A DNA stretch of 64,000 nucleotides from NCBI GenBank assembly GCA_964620125.1, contig CAZUGQ010000011.1, positions 14,307-78,306 on the forward strand, written 5' to 3'. Of the stretch, positions 18,345 through 26,271 are shown piece by piece. A program made the position numbers and the translations under genes. The notes beneath the pieces were generated by a model. The model was not told the DNA's origin. It worked only from the letters and a program-made list of their open reading frames with translations, and did no database searches. The stretch comes from an uncultured Hyphomicrobiales bacterium. Lineage in GTDB: Bacteria > Bacteroidota > Ignavibacteria > Kapaibacteriales > Kapaibacteriaceae. Numbering within the stretch: the stretch's first letter is position 1; each line of letters starts with the position of its first letter.

Positions 18345-19058
18345 ATGGCAGCACTTGATCTGGAGATGTTCACCAACGGCGCTCACGATCCTGAACGGGC
18401 GCAAGTGGAGATCCAGGCGGCACTACAGAACATCACCGCCGCTTTTCGTAGAAACCGATTGTATCCAGGCCTTGGTGAGTTGATCGAACTCACCTCAGCC
18501 CTGGAAACGATCAGAACAAACCGCAGCCAGTACACGTCCGTGCTCCCGCGAAAACTTTCCGGCGTGGACTTCGAGACGAAGACACTGAAGTTTGAATCAG
18601 TGCCAGCCGGTCCCGAAATCATCAACAAAATGTTTGCACTGGTTGACTGGGCACTTCCCGTGTTGAACAGCGTGACTGAAGAAGGTGTTGCGATGTTTGA
18701 TTTCGTAACGCAGAATGTGAGCGTGGACGTTGTTGGCATCATGCCCATGTATCGTGATGAAGGATATGCACTGATACCAGATCTGCGCGCAAACCTCATG
18801 CACATCCTGCGGTATGAGATGAGTTTGTATGCTGGTGATGGTGACCGGTATCGAGCACTGAAAACCATCGAACTGGAACCCCGACGTCTGTCTAACTGGG
18901 TTGGTACACCCGAAGACATCAAGATTTCGCTGGTGAAGGATCACACCGATCTGCCCAACCCGGCCACGTACTACATGAACACGGATCTGGATTTTCCATA
19001 CGAGGAAACCATATTACCAGTGGCCAAGCGGAAGCTTATGCGTGTGCTGATCTCGTAA
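18345..19058 (+). CDS. Conserved hypothetical protein
   Basis: AGGAGG RBS before ATG 18345; LYP, GIMPMY.DEGY, LPNPATY and ETILPVAKR segments. Confidence 0.7.
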   Translation: MAALDLEMFTNGAHDPERAQVEIQAALQNITAAFRRNRLYPGLGELIELTSALETIRTNRSQYTSVLPRKLSGVDFETKTLKFESVPAGPEIINKMFALVDWALPVLNSVTEEGVAMFDFVTQNVSVDVVGIMPMYRDEGYALIPDLRANLMHILRYEMSLYAGDGDRYRALKTIELEPRRLSNWVGTPEDIKISLVKDHTDLPNPATYYMNTDLDFPYEETILPVAKRKLMRVLIS

Positions 19059-19078
19059 CGGGTGGCCCGGTGTTCCGT

Positions 19079-20125
19079 TCACTTGCGCAGTATCGTCATC
19101 ACAAATCCATCACCGCCAGAATCTCCGATGGCCGTTTCCCATCGATGGAGTAGCGTGAGCCCTACCTCCTGCGGTGCAACTGGCAGTGCTTCTTCATCAA
19201 GAATGCTGCACGTTGCATAGCCTATCACACCTCCCGGTTTGCACATGCGCACGGCATGCAGAAAGATGTTTGCCTGAATGGCAAGCAGCTCCTGCAATCC
19301 TTGTTCGGTGAGATGCAGTGCGATGTCGGGATTCCGGCGTAGCACACCCGTGCCGCTGCATGGTGCGTCGACCAGAACAACGTCTGCCGTATCATACAAC
19401 CGCTTGTAGATCTTTGTTGAGGTTATGTGCCTAGCTTCCACGTTGTGAGCTCCCGCTCTCGCAGCACGTTTGGCTAGCTGGCTAAGCTTATGGGAAACAA
19501 TATCCAGTGCGATGATGGTACCGGTACCTGAGCTCAGTGCTGCCATGTGCAGGGTTTTCCCGCCTGCTCCGGCACAAAGATCAACACAGCGTTTCCAGCG
19601 AGCCTTTGCGAAGCGGAGCAACTCCCTGCTTACACGCTGTGAGTTGATGTCCTGTTGTTCAAACCAACCCATCTGAAAGGCTCTGCTGCGGAACAAGCCA
19701 AAGGGTGCGTTTACACGCAGGCACTCATGCTCAACATGTTCTGGCTGGAATGGAGCCAATGCCTCCATGGCTTTGGCAACTGTGGTTTTGAGTGTGTTTA
19801 CCCGAACAAAGGTTGGAGCGTCCTGCAGCGATGCTACAAGTGCATGGGAATTCTTTTGCAGCAGCCGTTCGCGCAACCATAGTGGTATTGCCATGCGAGC
19901 TTCGTCAATAACACCATCCAGCGCGCCTTGCCAAGCCCCTTCCCAGTTTGTGTATCGAATGGCCTGGTACAAACGATGTCGGATCAGGGATGCGTCGGCA
20001 CCCTGCACTCCAACAGACTGAAAGAGGGACTCGAGCTCTGACGAAAGGTGGCTGCCTTTGGTAACGCGTTCGTATGCGTTACGAAATGCGTCACGTGGTG
20101 ATGGTGAGGATCTGACTCGTTGCAT
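19079..20125 (-). CDS. RsmB/NOP family SAM-dependent RNA m5C methyltransferase
   Basis: RVNTLK, FEQQD..SQ, DLCAGAGGKT, VDAPCSGTG..RRNPD, YATCS. Confidence 0.9.
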   Translation of the reverse strand: MQRVRSSPSPRDAFRNAYERVTKGSHLSSELESLFQSVGVQGADASLIRHRLYQAIRYTNWEGAWQGALDGVIDEARMAIPLWLRERLLQKNSHALVASLQDAPTFVRVNTLKTTVAKAMEALAPFQPEHVEHECLRVNAPFGLFRSRAFQMGWFEQQDINSQRVSRELLRFAKARWKRCVDLCAGAGGKTLHMAALSSGTGTIIALDIVSHKLSQLAKRAARAGAHNVEARHITSTKIYKRLYDTADVVLVDAPCSGTGVLRRNPDIALHLTEQGLQELLAIQANIFLHAVRMCKPGGVIGYATCSILDEEALPVAPQEVGLTLLHRWETAIGDSGGDGFVMTILRK

Positions 20126-20585
20126 CGTAGGATGATGCAAACTTCGGCAGGTCGGTTGCGCTGCCACTGATGGGTTGCACAACATTGCGTCCGTCCGTTG
20201 CCGAGTACTGTGCCCCGTGGCAAGGGCACATGCAGTTTTCGCCAGGTGCAACAGGTAGATCAACGGTGCACGACTGATGGGTGCAGATGGCACTGAATAC
20301 AACAAAGGCTGAGTCGGCCACGCGCGAAATAAACACCGGCAGGTTGCTGTTCAGGCCGGAAATTACCGTGATGGTAATGCCTCCAACAACAGCGAGCTCG
20401 GGGCTTTTGGACACATCAAACGTTACGGTTGTAGATCCCGGGGGAGTCGGGGATGATTCGTCAACTTCACAACTCTGAACGAGTGCACTGATGGTTGCTG
20501 CACTGAACACGAGACCGATGGAGGATGTTGCGGCACGCAGAAATTCGCGCCGGCTCGAGGCATCGTTGGTAGGGGGCTTTGCCAT
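20091..20585 (-). CDS. Rieske [2Fe-2S] lipoprotein with Tat signal
   Basis: SRREFL twin-arginine motif, LVQSC lipobox, CTHQSC and CPCHG ligand motifs. Confidence 0.9.
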   Translation of the reverse strand: MAKPPTNDASSRREFLRAATSSIGLVFSAATISALVQSCEVDESSPTPPGSTTVTFDVSKSPELAVVGGITITVISGLNSNLPVFISRVADSAFVVFSAICTHQSCTVDLPVAPGENCMCPCHGAQYSATDGRNVVQPISGSATDLPKFASSYDATSQILTITT

Positions 20586-20606
20586 GGTGGATTCGTGAAG
20601 TGAATG

Positions 20607-20909
20607 CTACGGTACGGAACGGCGGCGAAGCATGAACACGCTAAGCAGGATGGTCATTCCCGATACACCGAGAACGAACACATATCCGCGGTGAACAACG
20701 CTTACGTCTGCATCATCAGGCAACAATCCGTACTTGAACGTTGGTTCCCACTTTACAACCTGTTGTGTTGTGCCGAACAGTTCGTCCTTCACCTCCGTGA
20801 CCACCTTTTCCCGCGTCTTGGTATAGATCTCCATACCATCACCGACCCAGACAATGCCTCCAACAATGATGGCGATGACGGCTGCAACGATTAGGAGCTT
20901 CCACATCAT
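20607..20909 (-). CDS. Small membrane protein with two hydrophobic segments
   Basis: N- and C-terminal TM-like stretches flanking a ~55-aa loop containing DELFGT. Confidence 0.65.
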   Translation of the reverse strand: MMWKLLIVAAVIAIIVGGIVWVGDGMEIYTKTREKVVTEVKDELFGTTQQVVKWEPTFKYGLLPDDADVSVVHRGYVFVLGVSGMTILLSVFMLRRRSVP

Positions 20910-20923
20910 AACGATACCCCGCA

Positions 20924-22096
20924 TTAATAGAACAGGTGCAGTTGCAAATTCCAACGTGTGGCAACGCCATCCTTGAAGGTGTCGAACAGACGGTATTCAG
21001 GCCGTAACTCAACAAATGGCATCACAAACACCTGCGCTCCGATGATGCCGGCGTTGAGTGTGGTTTCTTCCAGCAACTTTGTTTGGTTAGTAGTGCCGTG
21101 CTCATAACGAACGTAGGCGATAAGTGGAGGAGTGATTTGCCATCCTAGCTCGGCCATCGACATGGTACTGTACATCACATACTCCTTCTCCGTTCGAGTT
21201 ACGTCCAGCATTACGTAGAGCTGATCCGTAAGCCCCCCCCCAGCAAACACACTGATCATGCGAAAGTCGTTGTTGATGAGAACGGATCCACCAGCGTACG
21301 TGTTCACCATGTTCTCAAAAAATCTTGGCCATGCAACCACTCGAGCCGTGATCGTGGGACTGTTTCCCATGATTGCACTGTGCGAGGTGAGTCCGTCGCT
21401 GAGTTGCACTTGTCCAAGGCCTTCAGAGCCGAACAGCCCAAGCTGAACTGTAAGCCACTTTTCTCGTTCCCAGGTGATCTCGGAGCCCCATTCTCCCCAA
21501 TCGGGTGCCAGGTAGTTGCGCCGCGTTGTTGGCTCTGCATAACTCACAGGAAACACGGTATGGTCGTCGTATCGTGTGCCGATACCCGGACGGAACATAC
21601 CGATGCGTATCGACGGCAACTCCGCTATGGGCTGTAGGATGAGGCTGACTGAGCCCGCGCGTTGACCCGGAAACCGTACTTGTTGATTGTTACTCTTTCG
21701 GAGAGACGCGAAGTTGAAGCCCCCTTCCAGAGTTACTCCCTTCCACGGGCGAACTGCACCGTATAGTGTTGCCTGCATGGGAAAGTAAACGCGGCTGGCA
21801 GCGCTATCGGTAAATGATCTGGTTGTCTGTACCCGTATATCGGTGCCTAACACTACCTTGCCGTCGAAGTAGGCATTGCTTTGATCCTCGGGGTACAGAA
21901 ACGGAATGGATTCTCGTGGTATCAGGCCTACATCAGAATAGCTGTACCAGCCAAGATCATTCCGAATGCCGCCACCCTGCGGTGCTACATGGCATCCACT
22001 GCACCGATTGCCGCTCAGCAACGCAAACTGCGGCAGTGCATGCACCTGCACCACCGCAGCGATCATCATCAGCAGTACAATCGGGCGCTTGATCAT
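20924..22096 (-). CDS. Monoheme cytochrome c / outer-membrane beta-barrel fusion (Cyc2-like architecture)
   Basis: Signal peptide, then LPQFA....N.CSGCH; amphipathic strands; aromatic C-terminus WNLQLHLFY. Confidence 0.65.
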   Translation of the reverse strand: MIKRPIVLLMMIAAVVQVHALPQFALLSGNRCSGCHVAPQGGGIRNDLGWYSYSDVGLIPRESIPFLYPEDQSNAYFDGKVVLGTDIRVQTTRSFTDSAASRVYFPMQATLYGAVRPWKGVTLEGGFNFASLRKSNNQQVRFPGQRAGSVSLILQPIAELPSIRIGMFRPGIGTRYDDHTVFPVSYAEPTTRRNYLAPDWGEWGSEITWEREKWLTVQLGLFGSEGLGQVQLSDGLTSHSAIMGNSPTITARVVAWPRFFENMVNTYAGGSVLINNDFRMISVFAGGGLTDQLYVMLDVTRTEKEYVMYSTMSMAELGWQITPPLIAYVRYEHGTTNQTKLLEETTLNAGIIGAQVFVMPFVELRPEYRLFDTFKDGVATRWNLQLHLFY

Positions 22097-22162
22097 ACAG
22101 CGGCCAAGACCGATGAGTTTCTGTTTGGTTACGACAAAGCGGCAGGCCGTGTGCGTGGCCGA

Positions 22163-23182
22163 CTACTTAAACGTTACCGTCTTCAAACACTTCTCGAAAA
22201 TGGGTAGGTATACATTCTGTTCCGGCTTGAACCAGTTCACGGTTATGCGGAACATCTTGTCGCCCTTTACGGCAAAGTATGCCCGCGAGCTAACGGTGCC
22301 ACTTGGATTGTAGGAGAAGTATGCCGCCTTTACACCGCCCAGGGTAACCCCTGTTGGATTACCGCCACCATAGTTCGGTTTGTTTTGAAGGAGTATCTTT
22401 TCAAGGTTCTTCTGTTTCGAGGCATCGAATACATCAACCTGAATGTTGCAGTCCAGGCGAGACCCAAAGAAGTTCACGCTTGAGAGCCCACCACCAGAGA
22501 GTTTCTTGCCTTCGAAATTTTGAGGAATCTGGATCGTGAAATCAGGTGCGCTATACGAACGCAAGGTATCGGAAGGGGGCTCTGGTCCAGTGGGAGCAAG
22601 CGTATCCGGTTTTTTGGGAGCATCTGGTCTGCGAGCCAGTTTTACGGAAGCCACGATTTCCTTGAACTGCTCGGCGTAATCATCGAAGTTGTTGCCAAAA
22701 GATGCCAGCGTGAGGATCGTGACAACGCTATCATTCTCGGCGAAGTAAGCCTCTGATTTGAAGTTGCCATCTTCCTGACCGAACTCTACCCACAGCTTCA
22801 TGGCCGGTTTGCCGCCAAGTGTAGCTTTCTCCAGTTTGTACCGATCCAGCTTGTCTTCGAATTCAAGCTTGCTATTCTTAATCAGTGAATCCATGTTCCG
22901 AGTACTGTCGATCTCGATGGCACGAAGCTCCACCTTGGCACCACCTTCACCCTTGCTGAAATCCAGGAACCTGCGTCCAACACCTGGCTTGGAGAGAGCA
23001 AGAATCAAGTCACCCTTTTGAACCTGCTTTATCCAGTTCTTGGGGACCTTGACCTCGAACTTGCGAACGTCGTCCTTCATGAGCTCAAGGCCTTCGATAG
23101 GAGTGGGTGTGGCCTTGCGGGCGCACCCTGCTGCAACCAGTGCAGCAAGAGACAGCATAAGGAGAGAACGGAACAGAGACAT
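22163..23182 (-). CDS. Lipoprotein with two tandem PsbP-like domains
   Basis: AAGC lipobox; repeated F...VP.NW / FTIQIPQNF, TLGG..A and F....SVK/TVTF units joined by a Pro-rich linker. Confidence 0.6.
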   Translation of the reverse strand: MSLFRSLLMLSLAALVAAGCARKATPTPIEGLELMKDDVRKFEVKVPKNWIKQVQKGDLILALSKPGVGRRFLDFSKGEGGAKVELRAIEIDSTRNMDSLIKNSKLEFEDKLDRYKLEKATLGGKPAMKLWVEFGQEDGNFKSEAYFAENDSVVTILTLASFGNNFDDYAEQFKEIVASVKLARRPDAPKKPDTLAPTGPEPPSDTLRSYSAPDFTIQIPQNFEGKKLSGGGLSSVNFFGSRLDCNIQVDVFDASKQKNLEKILLQNKPNYGGGNPTGVTLGGVKAAYFSYNPSGTVSSRAYFAVKGDKMFRITVNWFKPEQNVYLPIFEKCLKTVTFK

Positions 23183-23212
23183 GGTAGAATCCTTGTGGTG
23201 ATGATCCGTAGC

Positions 23213-23602
23213 CTAGTTGTTCTGCGCGCCTTCCGAAATCCAGGTTCGCATACCGCGCGTCTGGGCCGAAGGTACGTTTTCAATGTTACCTGAAGTATGA
23301 AGAACCTGCCGTTCGAGAACTTTTATCAGCAAGCTCTCGTCTGGCCGGTATGGTACCGCAAGGTTCGGCCTGTCGAACATCACGGTTGAATACGAGCTTA
23401 ATCTAATTCCACCGGCGGCATTATACTCGTCGTGGCATGGGTAGCACCGGAGTGTAAAAAACGGCAATACGTGATTTCGGAAGCTCACCGCTGAGTCTGG
23501 AAACACGATGGCGTCGGGATTGTTCACATTGCCGGACGGGCACCCCACAAGCATGGAGCAGCAGCAGAAAACAGCCATCGGGAGGAGTATGGCGGGCATC
23601 AA
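23213..23602 (-). CDS. Monoheme c-type cytochrome lipoprotein (planctomycete cytochrome c-like domain)
   Basis: LVGC lipobox; VSF..HVLPFF...CYPCH....AGG..L; P..PDESLL; WISEGA. Confidence 0.75.
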
Positions 23603-24417
23603 TAGCTCTCCTCGGCGGATGGGAAATCTTTCGAGCGAACATCGGCTACATAGCGCTGCACGGCATTGGTCATGATCTCATGGAGTTCCGCATACCGGCG
23701 AACGAATCGCGGACGGAAATTGGTAGACATGCCCATCATATCCGTCCATACGAGCACCTGACCATCACAGCCGGATCCAGCTCCAATGCCGATAGTGGGC
23801 ACGGTGAGTGAGGCCGTGATACTAGCTGCCAGCGCTGAGGGTACTTTTTCAAGGACGATAGCAAAAACGCCAGCGTCTTGAAGCAGCAGCGCATCCTCGG
23901 CAATTCGTTGTGCTTCCTCTTCTTCGGTACCCCGCTGTTTGTACGAGCCAAACTGGTGAATGCTTTGAGGTGTAAGCCCCAGATGTCCCATCACGGGGAT
24001 GCCATTCTCTGTCATCAATCGAATGGCTTCCACGCTTCGTGAGCCCCCTTCCAACTTCACCGCACCACAGCCCGCTTCCTTCATGAGTCTGCCAGCATTG
24101 CGAAAGGCTTCGCGTGGAGACGCCTGGTAGCTCATGAATGGCATGTCTGTGACCACCATAGCGCTATCCACCGATCGAACCACAGCTTGTGTGTGGTAGA
24201 TCATCTGCTCCAGCGTAACGGGGATGGTTGTGTCGTGGCCCTGCACAACGTTGCCAACGCTGTCACCAACTAGCAACAGGTCCACCCCGGCGGCATCCAT
24301 GATGCCAGCCGTAAGAGCATCGTAGGCGGTGAGGCAGGCAATCGGGATGCCGGCCTGCTTCATCTCCACCAAGCGGAGCGTAGTAACGCGCTTGCGCGTG
24401 GTTGTGGTTTGTGGCAT
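23599..24417 (-). CDS. panB: 3-methyl-2-oxobutanoate hydroxymethyltransferase
   Basis: [45 protein letters not shown]. Confidence 0.97.
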
Positions 24418-24439
24418 GCAGGAAGTGTTGGAAGAGCGG

Positions 24440-24478
24440 CAAAGATAGCCGCCACCTTCCTTCCCTGCGTTATCTTTC
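24440..24478. promoter_or_regulatory. Back-to-back -7 elements for panB (TATCTTTG, minus, 24440-24447) and lpxH (TATCTTTC, plus, 24471-24478)
   Basis: One exact and one single-mismatch TAnnTTTG in a 65-bp divergent gap. Confidence 0.5.
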
Positions 24479-24482
24479 CGTC

Positions 24483-25256
24483 ATGTTCTCGCCCGTAGTT
24501 GCCCTTCGACACCTTACCGTGCCGGTCCCCGCAGGGCAACGTGTGGTATTCGTATCTGACGTACACCTTGGCTTGGGCGAAGCAGCCGCCGATAGGCTTC
24601 GTGAGCGGCGTTTTGTGGAGCTTCTCCGGTCGTTGCCTGGCTCATGCGCCCATCTTTTTATCGTGGGCGACCTATTTGACTATTGGTTTGATTACCAAAG
24701 GGTGATACCCCGAAAACACATTCGCGCACTTGCTGCCTTGGCGGATGTGCGCGAGGGCGGCCTACCCATCACATATCTGATGGGGAACCACGACTTCGGG
24801 CACCACACGTTCTTCCGCGATGAGCTGGGCATCCCTGTGGATCGGGGCGACGTGTCGGCACAGATTGCCGACCTGAAGTTCTACATAAGCCATGGCGATG
24901 GTAAGGTGGCGAATGACCGCGGTTACCTCGTTCTGCGTTCGATACTGCGAAATCGGTTTACGCAGTCAGTGTATCGCATGCTCCACCCCAACTGGGGAAT
25001 CGGCCTTGCCGCACGCACATCGCATGAGAGCCGCGTATACACAGATCAGAAGCACTATGGACACGATGGCCTGCGCGACTTTGCGGCTGCACGCATTGCC
25101 GAAGGGTACGATGTAGTGGTTATGGGACATCGGCACCGTGCTACCCATGAGAACGTGGGCGCTGGGCTCTACCTGAACCTTGGTGATTGGCTTGGGCAAA
25201 ACCCAACCTATGCGATATTCGCCCCACCAATGGCTCCGCAACTGGTTGCACTGTAG
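24483..25256 (+). CDS. lpxH: UDP-2,3-diacylglucosamine hydrolase (metallophosphoesterase)
   Basis: FVSDVHLG, GDLFDYW, GNHD, HGDG, GHRH, NLGDW. Confidence 0.85.
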   Translation: MFSPVVALRHLTVPVPAGQRVVFVSDVHLGLGEAAADRLRERRFVELLRSLPGSCAHLFIVGDLFDYWFDYQRVIPRKHIRALAALADVREGGLPITYLMGNHDFGHHTFFRDELGIPVDRGDVSAQIADLKFYISHGDGKVANDRGYLVLRSILRNRFTQSVYRMLHPNWGIGLAARTSHESRVYTDQKHYGHDGLRDFAAARIAEGYDVVVMGHRHRATHENVGAGLYLNLGDWLGQNPTYAIFAPPMAPQLVAL

Positions 25257-25335
25257 TCACCAACGGCGCAAGGCCCAGGAATCGAAGACCAGCATTAGGC
25301 AGCGTATGTTCGCACATCACCAAACGAGGGCTGAG

Positions 25336-26271
25336 ATGAAGAAAGTCGGGCTGTTATTCGGAATGGAACAATCGTTCCCACCGGCACTTGTGGAAGAGAT
25401 CAACAGTCGCGATGCTGGCGTCGCGGCGGAATTCGTGAAGATTGGTGGAGTAACACTCGAAGAAATGTTCGAGTATGATGTGATCTTGGATCGAATCTCG
25501 CAGGATGTTCCGTATTACCGTTCCATGCTCAAGATTGCTGCTCTGAATGGTGTGCGTGTGGTAAATAATCCGTTCTGGTGGACGGCTGACGACAAGTTCT
25601 TCAACTACGCCGTGGCCCATAAGGCTGGCATTCCCGTGCCCCGAACAGTGTTGTTACCTAGCAAGCAGCACCCACCAGATACATCCGCAGAAAGTTTTCG
25701 TAATCTGTTCTATCCACTGAACTGGCAGGAATTGTTCGATTATGTAGGCTTCCCAGCCTATCTGAAGCCTCATGATGGGGGGGGATGGAAACATGTGTAC
25801 AAGGTGAACTCTATTGACGAGTTTTTTGACCGGTACAGCGAAACGGGCACAATCGTGATGACGTTGCAGGAGTCCATAGAATTCACCGAGTATTATCGCT
25901 GTTACTGCATCGGCAAGAAGCATGTGCACATCATGCCCTACGAGCCGCGTAATCCTCATCACCTACGATACAAGGCCGGCTTCGCTCCAACGGATGCCAT
26001 GCGTTCGATGCTCACAGAGCTGTGTATCAAGATCTGCAACATCTTGGGCTATGACTTTAACACGATTGAGTTTGCAGTTCGGGATGGCATCCCGTATGCC
26101 ATTGACTACATGAATCCAGCACCTGATGCCGAACGCACAAGTGTGCAGGAAGAAAACTTTGCCTGGGTGTTGGATACTACGGCAACCTTTCTCATCGAGT
26201 TGGCTCAGGAAGGCAGAAAGATCCCTGCCGAATTCCACTGGAGCGAGTTCATAGGTAAAGGTCGGGGATGA
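25336..26271 (+). CDS. ATP-grasp ligase (RimK/glutathione synthase-like)
   Basis: NNPFWW..DDKF, P.TVLLP, FPAYLKP.DGGGWK.VY, LQE.I, NT.EFA, AIDYMNPAPD. Confidence 0.8.
   Translation: MKKVGLLFGMEQSFPPALVEEINSRDAGVAAEFVKIGGVTLEEMFEYDVILDRISQDVPYYRSMLKIAALNGVRVVNNPFWWTADDKFFNYAVAHKAGIPVPRTVLLPSKQHPPDTSAESFRNLFYPLNWQELFDYVGFPAYLKPHDGGGWKHVYKVNSIDEFFDRYSETGTIVMTLQESIEFTEYYRCYCIGKKHVHIMPYEPRNPHHLRYKAGFAPTDAMRSMLTELCIKICNILGYDFNTIEFAVRDGIPYAIDYMNPAPDAERTSVQEENFAWVLDTTATFLIELAQEGRKIPAEFHWSEFIGKGRG

Follow-up and report, generated by a model that had tools for sequence, protein, structure and literature searches.

Does a tight cluster of five genes in an uncultured hot-spring bacterium encode an electron-transfer module that spans the cell envelope, and which of the five genes belong to it? 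The cluster occupies positions 20091–23602 of the window, the 64,000-nucleotide stretch of contig CAZUGQ010000011.1 (assembly GCA_964620125.1) analyzed here. An earlier reading of the letters alone, which we call the original prediction, had combined all five genes into one module: a lipoprotein with a CYPCH motif (below, the PSCyt1-like protein), a tandem PsbP-like lipoprotein, a 390-amino-acid cytochrome-porin (the barrel protein), a small protein with two transmembrane (TM) stretches (the two-TM protein), and a Rieske [2Fe-2S] lipoprotein with a twin-arginine translocation (Tat) signal. Our coordinates reproduce both the five closely spaced minus-strand open reading frames (ORFs) and the intergenic gaps of 30, 66, 14 and 21 bp. 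For this gene set we computed the invariant cofactor motifs, the barrel fold, its homology to the outer membrane cytochrome Cyc2, gene adjacency and co-loss among relatives, and the genome's cytochrome c maturation (Ccm) genes and oxidases. The core that emerges is smaller than five genes and consists of a two-protein redox module, the barrel and the Rieske lipoprotein, plus the small membrane protein. Because the barrel gene is kept beside the Rieske gene and is lost together with it, the pair may offer electrons a hitherto undescribed way through the outer membrane. With moderate confidence, we favor a Cyc2-type one-electron conduit in the outer membrane that has the Rieske lipoprotein as its periplasmic partner.

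Fold and ancestry of the barrel protein

By inspection of its translation, the barrel protein begins with a signal peptide at residues 1–20 (MIKRPIVLLMMIAAVVQVHA) and its mature form starts with LPQF. The signal peptide ends in VHA and is followed by LPQFALLSGNRCSGCHVAPQGGG, and the C-terminal end of the protein reads LHLFY. Its heme module has the pattern A-x-P-x-F-A-x6-CSGCH-x4-GGGxR. Neither Pfam nor NCBIfam contains a family for this protein or for the two-TM protein, and the Protein Atlas offered only unnamed clusters and, as a lead, one ‘phosphate-selective porin’ cluster. A word-indexed search returned 175 relatives at E≤0.001; among the 120 listed, every match that bears a name is a ‘hypothetical protein’, and these come mostly from metagenome-assembled genomes (MAGs) of Kapabacteria, Ignavibacteria or Bacteroidota. 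Among 1.84 billion cluster representatives, we found 320 relatives. The family is also widespread close to home: we sampled 151 genomes from the window genome’s class, and 112 of them have a match, 97 at E≤1e-30.

We aligned 126 full-length members, with identities that reach down to 22%. CxxCH occurs exactly once in each of the 126 proteins, residues C32, C35, H36, R88 and G166 are invariant, and M107, H179 and H387, among others, are conserved in at least 90% of members. The AlphaFold2 (AF2) model of the window protein (predicted local distance difference test score, pLDDT, 92.5; predicted template modeling score, pTM, 0.87) folds into 16 long strands that follow an N-terminal module of about 60 residues, and its pLDDT drops below 50 at residues 1–3 and 13–20. 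The original prediction had declared itself vulnerable to a CxxCH that varies among homologs and to a missing barrel; we find the motif fixed and the barrel present. Searched against the PDB with Foldseek, the model retrieves 16-strand porins at the top, including OprO (4rjw, 4rjx) and OprP (2o4v), at query-normalized template modeling scores (TMq) of 0.54–0.57. The same two porins are reported as templates for Cyc2 (PMC8406198). A sequence search of solved structures with the family profile gave no match at E≤10.

This architecture resembles that of Cyc2. As laid out in the part of Keffer et al. (2021; PMC8406198) that we draw on, a Cyc2 protein is recognized by its signal peptide, by a single CXXCH with AXPXFAR[Q/K][T/Y] upstream and PXL after it, by a 16-strand OprO/OprP-like porin and by a length of at least 365 amino acids. 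The barrel protein shares with them the signal peptide (by inspection), the single N-terminal CXXCH, the 16-strand OprO/OprP-like porin and the length. For a canonical comparison set, we scanned metagenome contigs with the back-translated motif AxPxFAR[QK][TY]xxxCxxCH, for which we estimate a chance expectation below one; the scan gave at least 120 stretches, of which 80 loci were kept, and these provided 53 full-length proteins.

Aligned by hhalign over the full length, the barrel family matches the 53 canonical Cyc2 proteins at 97.3% probability (E 2.7e-11, 334 columns). Profile-profile comparison of the mature N-terminal module alone gave 96.1% (E 2.8e-9, 33 columns), and the barrel part alone gave a score of 34.9 (E 4.6e-4, 32.7% probability), compared with scores of 14.4–17.6 (E 0.2–0.35, 0.2–0.3%) for reversed or block-shuffled barrel controls. 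In a further control, the N-terminal module was compared with the unrelated PSCyt1-like alignment and matched it at 53.6% (E 1.3e-4, 18 columns). At the level of single positions, the barrel family and canonical Cyc2 have in common, at the same spacing to the first heme cysteine, an alanine (-12), a proline (-10), an aromatic residue (-8), a small residue (-7) and a glycine (-3). Indeed, A-x-P-x-[F/Y/M]-[S/A/T] together with G(-3) is the sole part of the upstream Cyc2 motif that the family retains. In place of PxL, 125 of the 126 members carry a run of glycines and then R..LGWY after the heme site.

A quick maximum-likelihood (ML) tree of 68 family and 14 canonical rows, for which every fourth sequence of L001–L042 and of the canonical set was taken, separates the barrel family from canonical Cyc2 with 100% support in the Shimodaira–Hasegawa-like approximate likelihood-ratio test (SH-aLRT), on long branches. 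The barrel family is very likely homologous to Cyc2. Because two of the defining motifs that we tested fail, we file it as a deep sister clade of the same architecture and not as Cyc2 proper, in line with the original prediction, which had recognized in the 390-amino-acid protein a distant, Cyc2-like monoheme cytochrome-porin; the full-length profile match and the 16-strand model speak for that view.

Set beside Cyc2PV-1 of Mariprofundus, Cyc2 of Acidithiobacillus ferrooxidans and Cyt572 of Leptospirillum (as described in the same part of PMC8406198), the window protein likewise carries one CxxCH, placed N-terminally behind a signal peptide, together with the A-x-P-x-F-A...G-x-x-C frame and its spacing, a length of about 400 amino acids and an OprO/OprP-like barrel of 16 strands. 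Unlike them, the barrel family carries LL[T/S]GN[R/K] before the heme site and GGGxRxxLGWY after it, and its neighbor is a stand-alone Rieske lipoprotein. Just 3 of the 80 canonical-motif Cyc2 loci contain a Rieske match, and at L103 and L130 the Rieske gene is part of a Rieske/cytochrome b6/subunit IV set. In these two metagenome loci (L103:2496–6789 and L130:6105–13928), genes of the Rieske, cytochrome b6 and subunit-IV-like types come after the canonical-motif Cyc2 gene; L130 also has ResB/CcsA-like genes and a PSCyt1-like protein with CxCH ahead of the Cyc2 gene.

One family of the class shows a further variant. Short ORFs of 220–275 amino acids (L223:6290–6958; also in G150, G036 and G142) lie directly upstream of the full-length barrel gene and match just the N-terminal heme module of the barrel profile. 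They may represent a truncated or mini-barrel paralog.

The Rieske lipoprotein and its linkage to the barrel

The Rieske protein combines an RREF Tat motif and a lipobox cysteine (Cys39) with the cluster boxes CTHQSC and CPCHGAQY, which include the disulfide cysteines typical of bc-type proteins. Pfam assigns it to Rieske (E 5.6e-8; 33 bits, cut-off 20.3) and finds the UCR_Fe-S_N Tat-signal (E 6.7e-4); in NCBIfam, only the bc1, b6f, arsenite-oxidase and sulredoxin Rieske models respond, all below cut-off. Across the 49 sequences of our Rieske alignment (A4), RR, F, Cys39, C101, H103, C120 and H123 are invariant. Two orthologs, L022 and L052, have other residues in place of both disulfide cysteines (their boxes read CTHSGN...CPFH and CNHEGR...CPYH), a paired change that is consistent with a predicted disulfide in the other orthologs.

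As in bc-type proteins, the CxH and CxxH ligands and the two disulfide cysteines are all in place. The remaining hallmark of that class, membership in a complex with cytochrome b, is absent: a search with PF00033 found no cytochrome b in the 100%-complete window genome, although the same model matches 8 of 14 control genomes, and the related barrel loci contain none either. Because the genome has no cytochrome b that we could find, the window Rieske protein is not a bc-complex subunit; the original prediction had noted this absence for the neighborhood, and it holds for the whole genome. The twin-arginine signal, the CxH...CxxH ligands and the disulfide pair are also those of the Tat-exported Rieske subunits of bc1/b6f and AioB, and the sequence affinity points the same way (TIGR01416, 43.6 bits; TIGR02694, 30.2 bits), far below the NCBIfam cut-offs. 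Unlike those subunits, the window protein is predicted to be anchored by a lipid at its lipobox and not by a TM helix, it comes without a cytochrome b or molybdopterin partner, and its partner gene encodes an outer membrane barrel.

In alignment A4, an acidic stretch, CE[T]DE[T], follows the lipid-anchor cysteine, and we take it to resemble the lipoprotein export signals of Bacteroidota. We considered a surface-exposed Rieske protein and dropped the idea, since passage through the outer membrane is improbable for a protein that leaves by Tat with its cluster already loaded.

How faithfully do the two genes stay together? We examined the 80 best genome loci of the barrel by tblastn with the window’s neighbor proteins and found matches to the two-TM protein in 63, the Rieske protein in 61, the PSCyt1-like protein in 45, panB in 43, the PsbP-like protein in 43 and RsmB in 41. 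The PSCyt1-like, panB, PsbP-like and RsmB genes occur together, and this is limited to the nearest relatives (barrel identity of 45% or more), in which synteny extends over the entire stretch; more distant loci keep the arrangement barrel – two-TM – (YceI) – Rieske. Of 97 loci, 67 have the Rieske gene on the barrel gene’s strand and within 3 kb of it, and the two-TM gene reaches the same count (67 of 97). In the ML tree, Rieske-linked barrels appear in two of the three basal clades.

The linkage is tightest among genomes with strong barrel matches. Thirty-one genomes from eight families match the barrel at 250 bits or more, and 30 of them have an A4-type Rieske gene (E≤1e-15) within about 2.5 kb; the 31st, G087, has an adjoining Rieske ORF at 57.9 bits, which brings Rieske adjacency to 31 of 31. 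The original prediction had made co-occurrence elsewhere a test of itself, and this is where it is found. Gene order depends on the family, being either barrel–TM–(YceI)–Rieske or Rieske(–Rieske)–barrel, and the adjacency persists through these changes. Because related genomes are not independent, the weight of this observation lies in the eight families and the changes of order, not in the 31 genomes. Sampled more broadly, in 20 loci from 19 families of the class, the Rieske gene adjoins the barrel in 8 and a PSCyt1-like cytochrome does so in 6.

A natural deletion provides the strongest single hint that the two genes depend on each other. Genome G070, which belongs to the same genus, is a single contig and 100% complete, has no match to the barrel profile (2 candidates scored) and none to the Rieske profile (22 candidates scored). 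What remains, in unchanged order, is panB, the genes for the PSCyt1-like and PsbP-like proteins, an intact two-TM gene and RsmB. Since the two-TM gene sits between barrel and Rieske in relatives, losing both takes two separate deletions; the hint comes from one lineage only. In this same lineage, the PSCyt1-like, PsbP-like and two-TM genes were kept after the barrel and Rieske genes had gone, which indicates that these three are independent of the pair. Conserved adjacency and joint loss uphold the earlier proposal of the Rieske lipoprotein as the barrel’s companion, and the two proteins probably work together.

Co-folding, a check suggested along with the original prediction, makes a small addition to the case for the pairing and gives weak support. 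The barrel (residues 21–390, alignment A3) and the mature Rieske protein (residues 40–164, alignment A4) reached a score of 0.36 (runs 0.36, 0.51 and 0.22), compared with 0.03 for the best of three controls; 90% or more of the contacts coincide between runs, and the partner’s pLDDT is at least 84. In the calibration, 58 of 80 solved complexes and 2 of 110 mismatched pairs reached the mark, and among those at the mark, scores of 0.60 or below came from just 7 of the 80 solved complexes and from both of the passing mismatches.

Two groups of loci depart from the common arrangement. In L066–L079, titled Latescibacterota, the barrel keeps the two-TM gene, no Rieske gene lies nearby, and a conserved helical lipoprotein of about 185 amino acids, without a Pfam family, precedes the barrel; in L068, L077 and L079, inserted TIR-domain genes separate the barrel gene from the two-TM gene. 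In 10 of 38 loci (L045:8985–11774; L047, L050, L052 and L059 among them), a large protein of about 920 amino acids is encoded directly after the Rieske gene. These proteins have Ig/PKD repeats and a sorting tail of the type IX secretion system (T9SS), and their N-terminal domain, for which Pfam has no family, carries GI[T/S]G...C-x(1-4)-CH with variable spacing (CGGVDCH, CGSCH, CTCH).

Neighboring genes, flanks and genome background

Table 1. Predicted genes of the cluster, in window positions, with the basis of each assignment.
Feature	Positions	Strand	Length and basis
PSCyt1-like putative monoheme c-type cytochrome lipoprotein	23213–23602	minus	129 aa; LVGC lipobox, CYPCH; Pfam PSCyt1
Tandem PsbP/DcrB-fold lipoprotein (predicted)	22163–23182	minus	339 aa; AAGC lipobox; AF2 and Foldseek
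Cyc2-superfamily monoheme cytochrome-porin, divergent clade (predicted)	20924–22096	minus	390 aa; family alignment, AF2, Foldseek, hhalign
Small protein with two hydrophobic stretches	20607–20909	minus	100 aa with ATG at 20909 (start MMWKLL); full ORF 20607–20954
Tat-exported Rieske [2Fe-2S] lipoprotein (predicted)	20091–20585	minus	164 aa; Pfam Rieske, SRREFLR, LVQSC lipobox

The original five-gene module loses two of its members. The CYPCH and PsbP-like lipoproteins accompany the barrel only in close relatives; because those relatives also keep panB and RsmB, the synteny is uninformative, and both lipoproteins stay in G070 without the barrel and the Rieske protein. The description of the first as a CYPCH lipoprotein stands for the window protein, which has the motif and matches Pfam PSCyt1 (25.3 bits, cut-off 22). 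It does not extend to a fixed CxxCH: C53, C56 and H57 are invariant in 29 aligned orthologs, but the spacing between the cysteines varies from 1 to 4 residues (in C-x(n)-CH, n is 4 in 17 sequences, 2 in 10, 3 in 1 and 1 in 1). PSCyt1-like genes also adjoin the barrels of other sub-clades (L212, L220, L227 and L228). We regard the PSCyt1-like lipoprotein as a lineage-specific neighbor and a possible downstream electron carrier.

The second lipoprotein is tandem and PsbP-like, as originally described. Its AF2 model (pLDDT 87.3) has two alpha/beta domains with a disordered linker at residues 189–198, and the best Foldseek matches in the PDB are PsbP/CyanoP, with target-normalized template modeling scores (TMt) of 0.59–0.68 per domain and E about 1e-5. 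At the sequence level the signal is faint: Pfam DcrB scores 16.7 bits, below its cut-off of 27.2, the two halves resemble each other weakly (E 0.056), and a search of solved structures returned a chance match only. Of the 80 loci, only the 43 with panB contain the gene, and we consider it a lineage-specific neighbor too. The two-TM protein is predicted to have both termini inside, with a loop of about 55 residues that carries I[FY]TKD...DELFGT...W..F.LGLLP and no cofactor motif. Longer fused forms of it were absent from 8000 scored candidates, which is weak evidence.

The cluster is flanked by panB (PF02548, E 7e-117) and RsmB (PF01189, E 3e-31), both of which had been named before and are borne out by Pfam. 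The TTG start of the PSCyt1-like ORF overlaps the panB stop by 4 bp (23599–23602), and panB may be co-transcribed with the cluster. On the other side, the longest RsmB ORF shares 215 bp (20091–20305) with the end of the Rieske gene; thus, the true RsmB start probably lies further downstream. A scan of positions 18800–25400 for promoters and terminators gave no more sites than shuffled sequence and did not help to delimit an operon. In two DNA runs of one study, labeled hot springs metagenome, 0.91 and 0.76 of the sampled words of this DNA are present.

The window genome comprises 2.62 Mb in 58 contigs, is 100% complete and holds one copy of the barrel gene. It encodes CcmF- and CcmC-like proteins, so the cytochrome c maturation genes whose absence would have troubled the original prediction are there, and two COX1-family oxidases. 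Five of its ORFs contain a Rieske domain. Two of the others are Tat lipoproteins in paralogous operons on contigs C45 (201–3807; L230) and C38 (8755–13536; L229), which share the order di-heme DHOR (PF06537) – Tat Rieske lipoprotein – BBP2-like porin – DtxR-type repressor. The DtxR-type, iron-dependent repressors of both operons carry a FeoA domain, and each operon looks like an iron- or metal-regulated outer membrane redox set. In the C38 copy, a gene for a 273-amino-acid membrane protein follows.

A proposed electron route and its alternatives

How might barrel and Rieske protein be wired together? In the model that we infer, which extends to heme attachment, cellular locations, electron transfer, its direction and the Fe(II) substrate, the barrel protein would bind one c-type heme at C32/C35, with H36 as the proximal ligand. 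This heme would sit on the N-terminal module of about 55 residues, at or inside the periplasmic mouth of the 16-strand outer membrane barrel. The Rieske protein would fold and receive its [2Fe-2S] cluster in the cytoplasm, leave by the Tat pathway, become lipid-anchored at Cys39 and exchange single electrons with the barrel from the periplasmic side. The heme in the pore would be reduced by a small soluble compound from outside, for which the analogy to Cyc2 suggests Fe(II). The electron would next reach the Rieske cluster and then a c-type cytochrome, a role that the PSCyt1-like lipoprotein may play in this lineage, before it arrives at one of the two heme-copper oxidases. Fe(II) as the substrate together with inward flow is a plausible if tentative part of this model.

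The logic is that of the well-established rus chain of A. ferrooxidans (Cyc2 – Cyc1 – rusticyanin – aa3 oxidase; reference 72 in PMC13594681), in which an outer membrane monoheme porin is encoded with small periplasmic one-electron carriers that lead toward an oxidase. Unlike in rus, the high-potential carrier would be a [2Fe-2S] Rieske lipoprotein and not a blue copper protein, and the window cluster contains no oxidase genes. MtrCAB and MtoAB/PioAB likewise cross the outer membrane by means of a cytochrome inside a barrel. These systems, as described in the part of PMC8406198 used here, place a separate decaheme protein in a 26-strand barrel; unlike MtrAB/PioAB, the window protein has a single heme motif fused to a 16-strand barrel.

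Several observations weigh against a Cyc2-type conduit with a Rieske partner. In 12 of the 20 family-level barrel loci, which belong to other sub-clades, the barrel has no Rieske neighbor, and Rieske proteins of the same type also occur in genomes without any barrel, such as G089. The kinship with Cyc2 has its own soft spots. The barrel-only profile signal is weak, and the N-terminal similarity is partly generic to heme motifs, because the module also matches the unrelated PSCyt1-like alignment. FAR[Q/K][T/Y] is found in 0 of 126 family members and in 53 of 53 canonical proteins (the latter by construction, as they were selected on the motif), PxL four residues after CxxCH in 0 of 126 versus 32 of 53 at the exact spacing, and a hidden Markov model of the 53 canonical proteins scores the window protein at 16.5 bits and the 126-member family at a median of 10.5 bits. 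Conservation narrows the distal heme ligand only to the candidates M107, H179 and H387. The lineages of the class that carry the barrel are mainly heterotrophs, so that the spread of the family fits a housekeeping role better than iron lithotrophy. Lastly, Cyc2 heme potentials range from +208 mV (PMC8406198) to -130 mV (PMC13692758) in the portions of these papers that we cite, and with so wide a range, thermodynamics leaves the direction of flow unfixed.

The module might instead handle iron, oxidizing incoming Fe(II) in the pore or periplasm, or reducing Fe(III), for uptake or detoxification. A barrel gene that is near-universal and single-copy in the class and that sits among housekeeping genes would suit this purpose, and the main support comes from the C45 and C38 operons, in which Rieske lipoprotein, porin and heme protein are again combined, with an iron regulator alongside. 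The Rieske proteins encoded there, however, represent a different sub-family (42.6 and 36.4 bits, versus 217.7 for the window’s own), neither the locus nor any of the 80 related loci examined contains a transporter, siderophore or iron-regulator gene, and the function is dispensable, given that G070 lost all these Rieske types. We consider iron handling unlikely. The original prediction had also entertained redox-coupled uptake of metal or heme: for metal, the C45 and C38 operons beside an iron regulator offer some indirect support, and heme uptake we rejected, since no locus examined contains transporter or heme-handling genes.

Electrons might also flow outward. Here the Rieske protein, with the help of a YceI-like polyisoprenoid-binding protein, would take them from menaquinol and pass them through the barrel heme to an extracellular acceptor. 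Quinol oxidation is the classical job of bc-type Rieske proteins, and CPCH-x-A in place of CPCHGS is presumably typical of lower-potential, menaquinol-type members. Moreover, a YceI gene (PF04264, E 6e-26) is found inside the cluster, between the two-TM and Rieske genes, in 16 of 97 loci, and in 10 of 38 loci, as described above, the gene after Rieske encodes a large T9SS-type surface protein whose N-terminal domain carries C-x(1-4)-CH. Set against this are a window cluster without YceI (the two YceI genes of the genome lie elsewhere), the lack of a cytochrome b or other known quinol-site partner, and the inward flow into every characterized Cyc2 relative covered by the portions of PMC8406198 and PMC13692758 that we rely on; outward flow is improbable. 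Still less can be said for the absence of any functional module, that is, for an ordinary porin with a relic motif and neighbors inherited by synteny. The panB-to-RsmB stretch is indeed syntenic in the closest 42 loci, where adjacency proves nothing, and the co-folding support is weak. Yet CxxCH is invariant in 126 of 126 members down to 22% identity, Rieske adjacency survives changes of order across eight families, G070 carries a double deletion, and other sub-clades have a different redox neighbor, the PSCyt1-like cytochrome. This explanation is already disfavored and, in our judgment, very improbable.

The original prediction had called the system undescribed, and a literature search agrees: neither this barrel family nor a cytochrome-porin with a Rieske partner turned up in it, although supplementary trees and tables outside the search might list such sequences. 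Papers on Cyc2 phylogeny make, in the sections that we draw on, no mention of Bacteroidota, Ignavibacteria, Kapabacteria or a Rieske partner, and FeGenie-based metagenome surveys, likewise cited from parts of their text, mention that Ignavibacteriales MAGs contain ‘iron oxidation genes’ and say no more about them (PMC8478452, PMC13594681).

What would a conduit with a Rieske partner mean? In its strongest form, a Rieske protein beneath the outer membrane and a cytochrome-porin would make up a stable two-cofactor redox machine (heme and [2Fe-2S]) that works without cytochrome b in most members of the class. We hold this form to be doubtful; if true, it would imply an unrecognized exchange of electrons with extracellular iron or redox-active solutes in a Bacteroidota-related class of heterotrophs and would name, for the first time outside the rus system of acidophiles, a periplasmic partner of a Cyc2-type protein. 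More broadly, Cyc2 serves as a marker gene for neutrophilic iron oxidation, and two questions about it are open: what its homologs do in organisms that do not oxidize iron, and which protein accepts its electrons. The family described here takes the Cyc2 architecture well beyond motif-based definitions. Its gene has nearly the status of a core gene in this large class, most of which is uncultured, and it comes with a defined, testable partner in the stand-alone Rieske lipoprotein. If this partnership is true, it would amount to a new wiring of an outer membrane cytochrome to the respiratory chain, and the metagenomic ‘iron oxidation potential’ of Ignavibacteria- and Kapabacteria-like genomes would be read differently.

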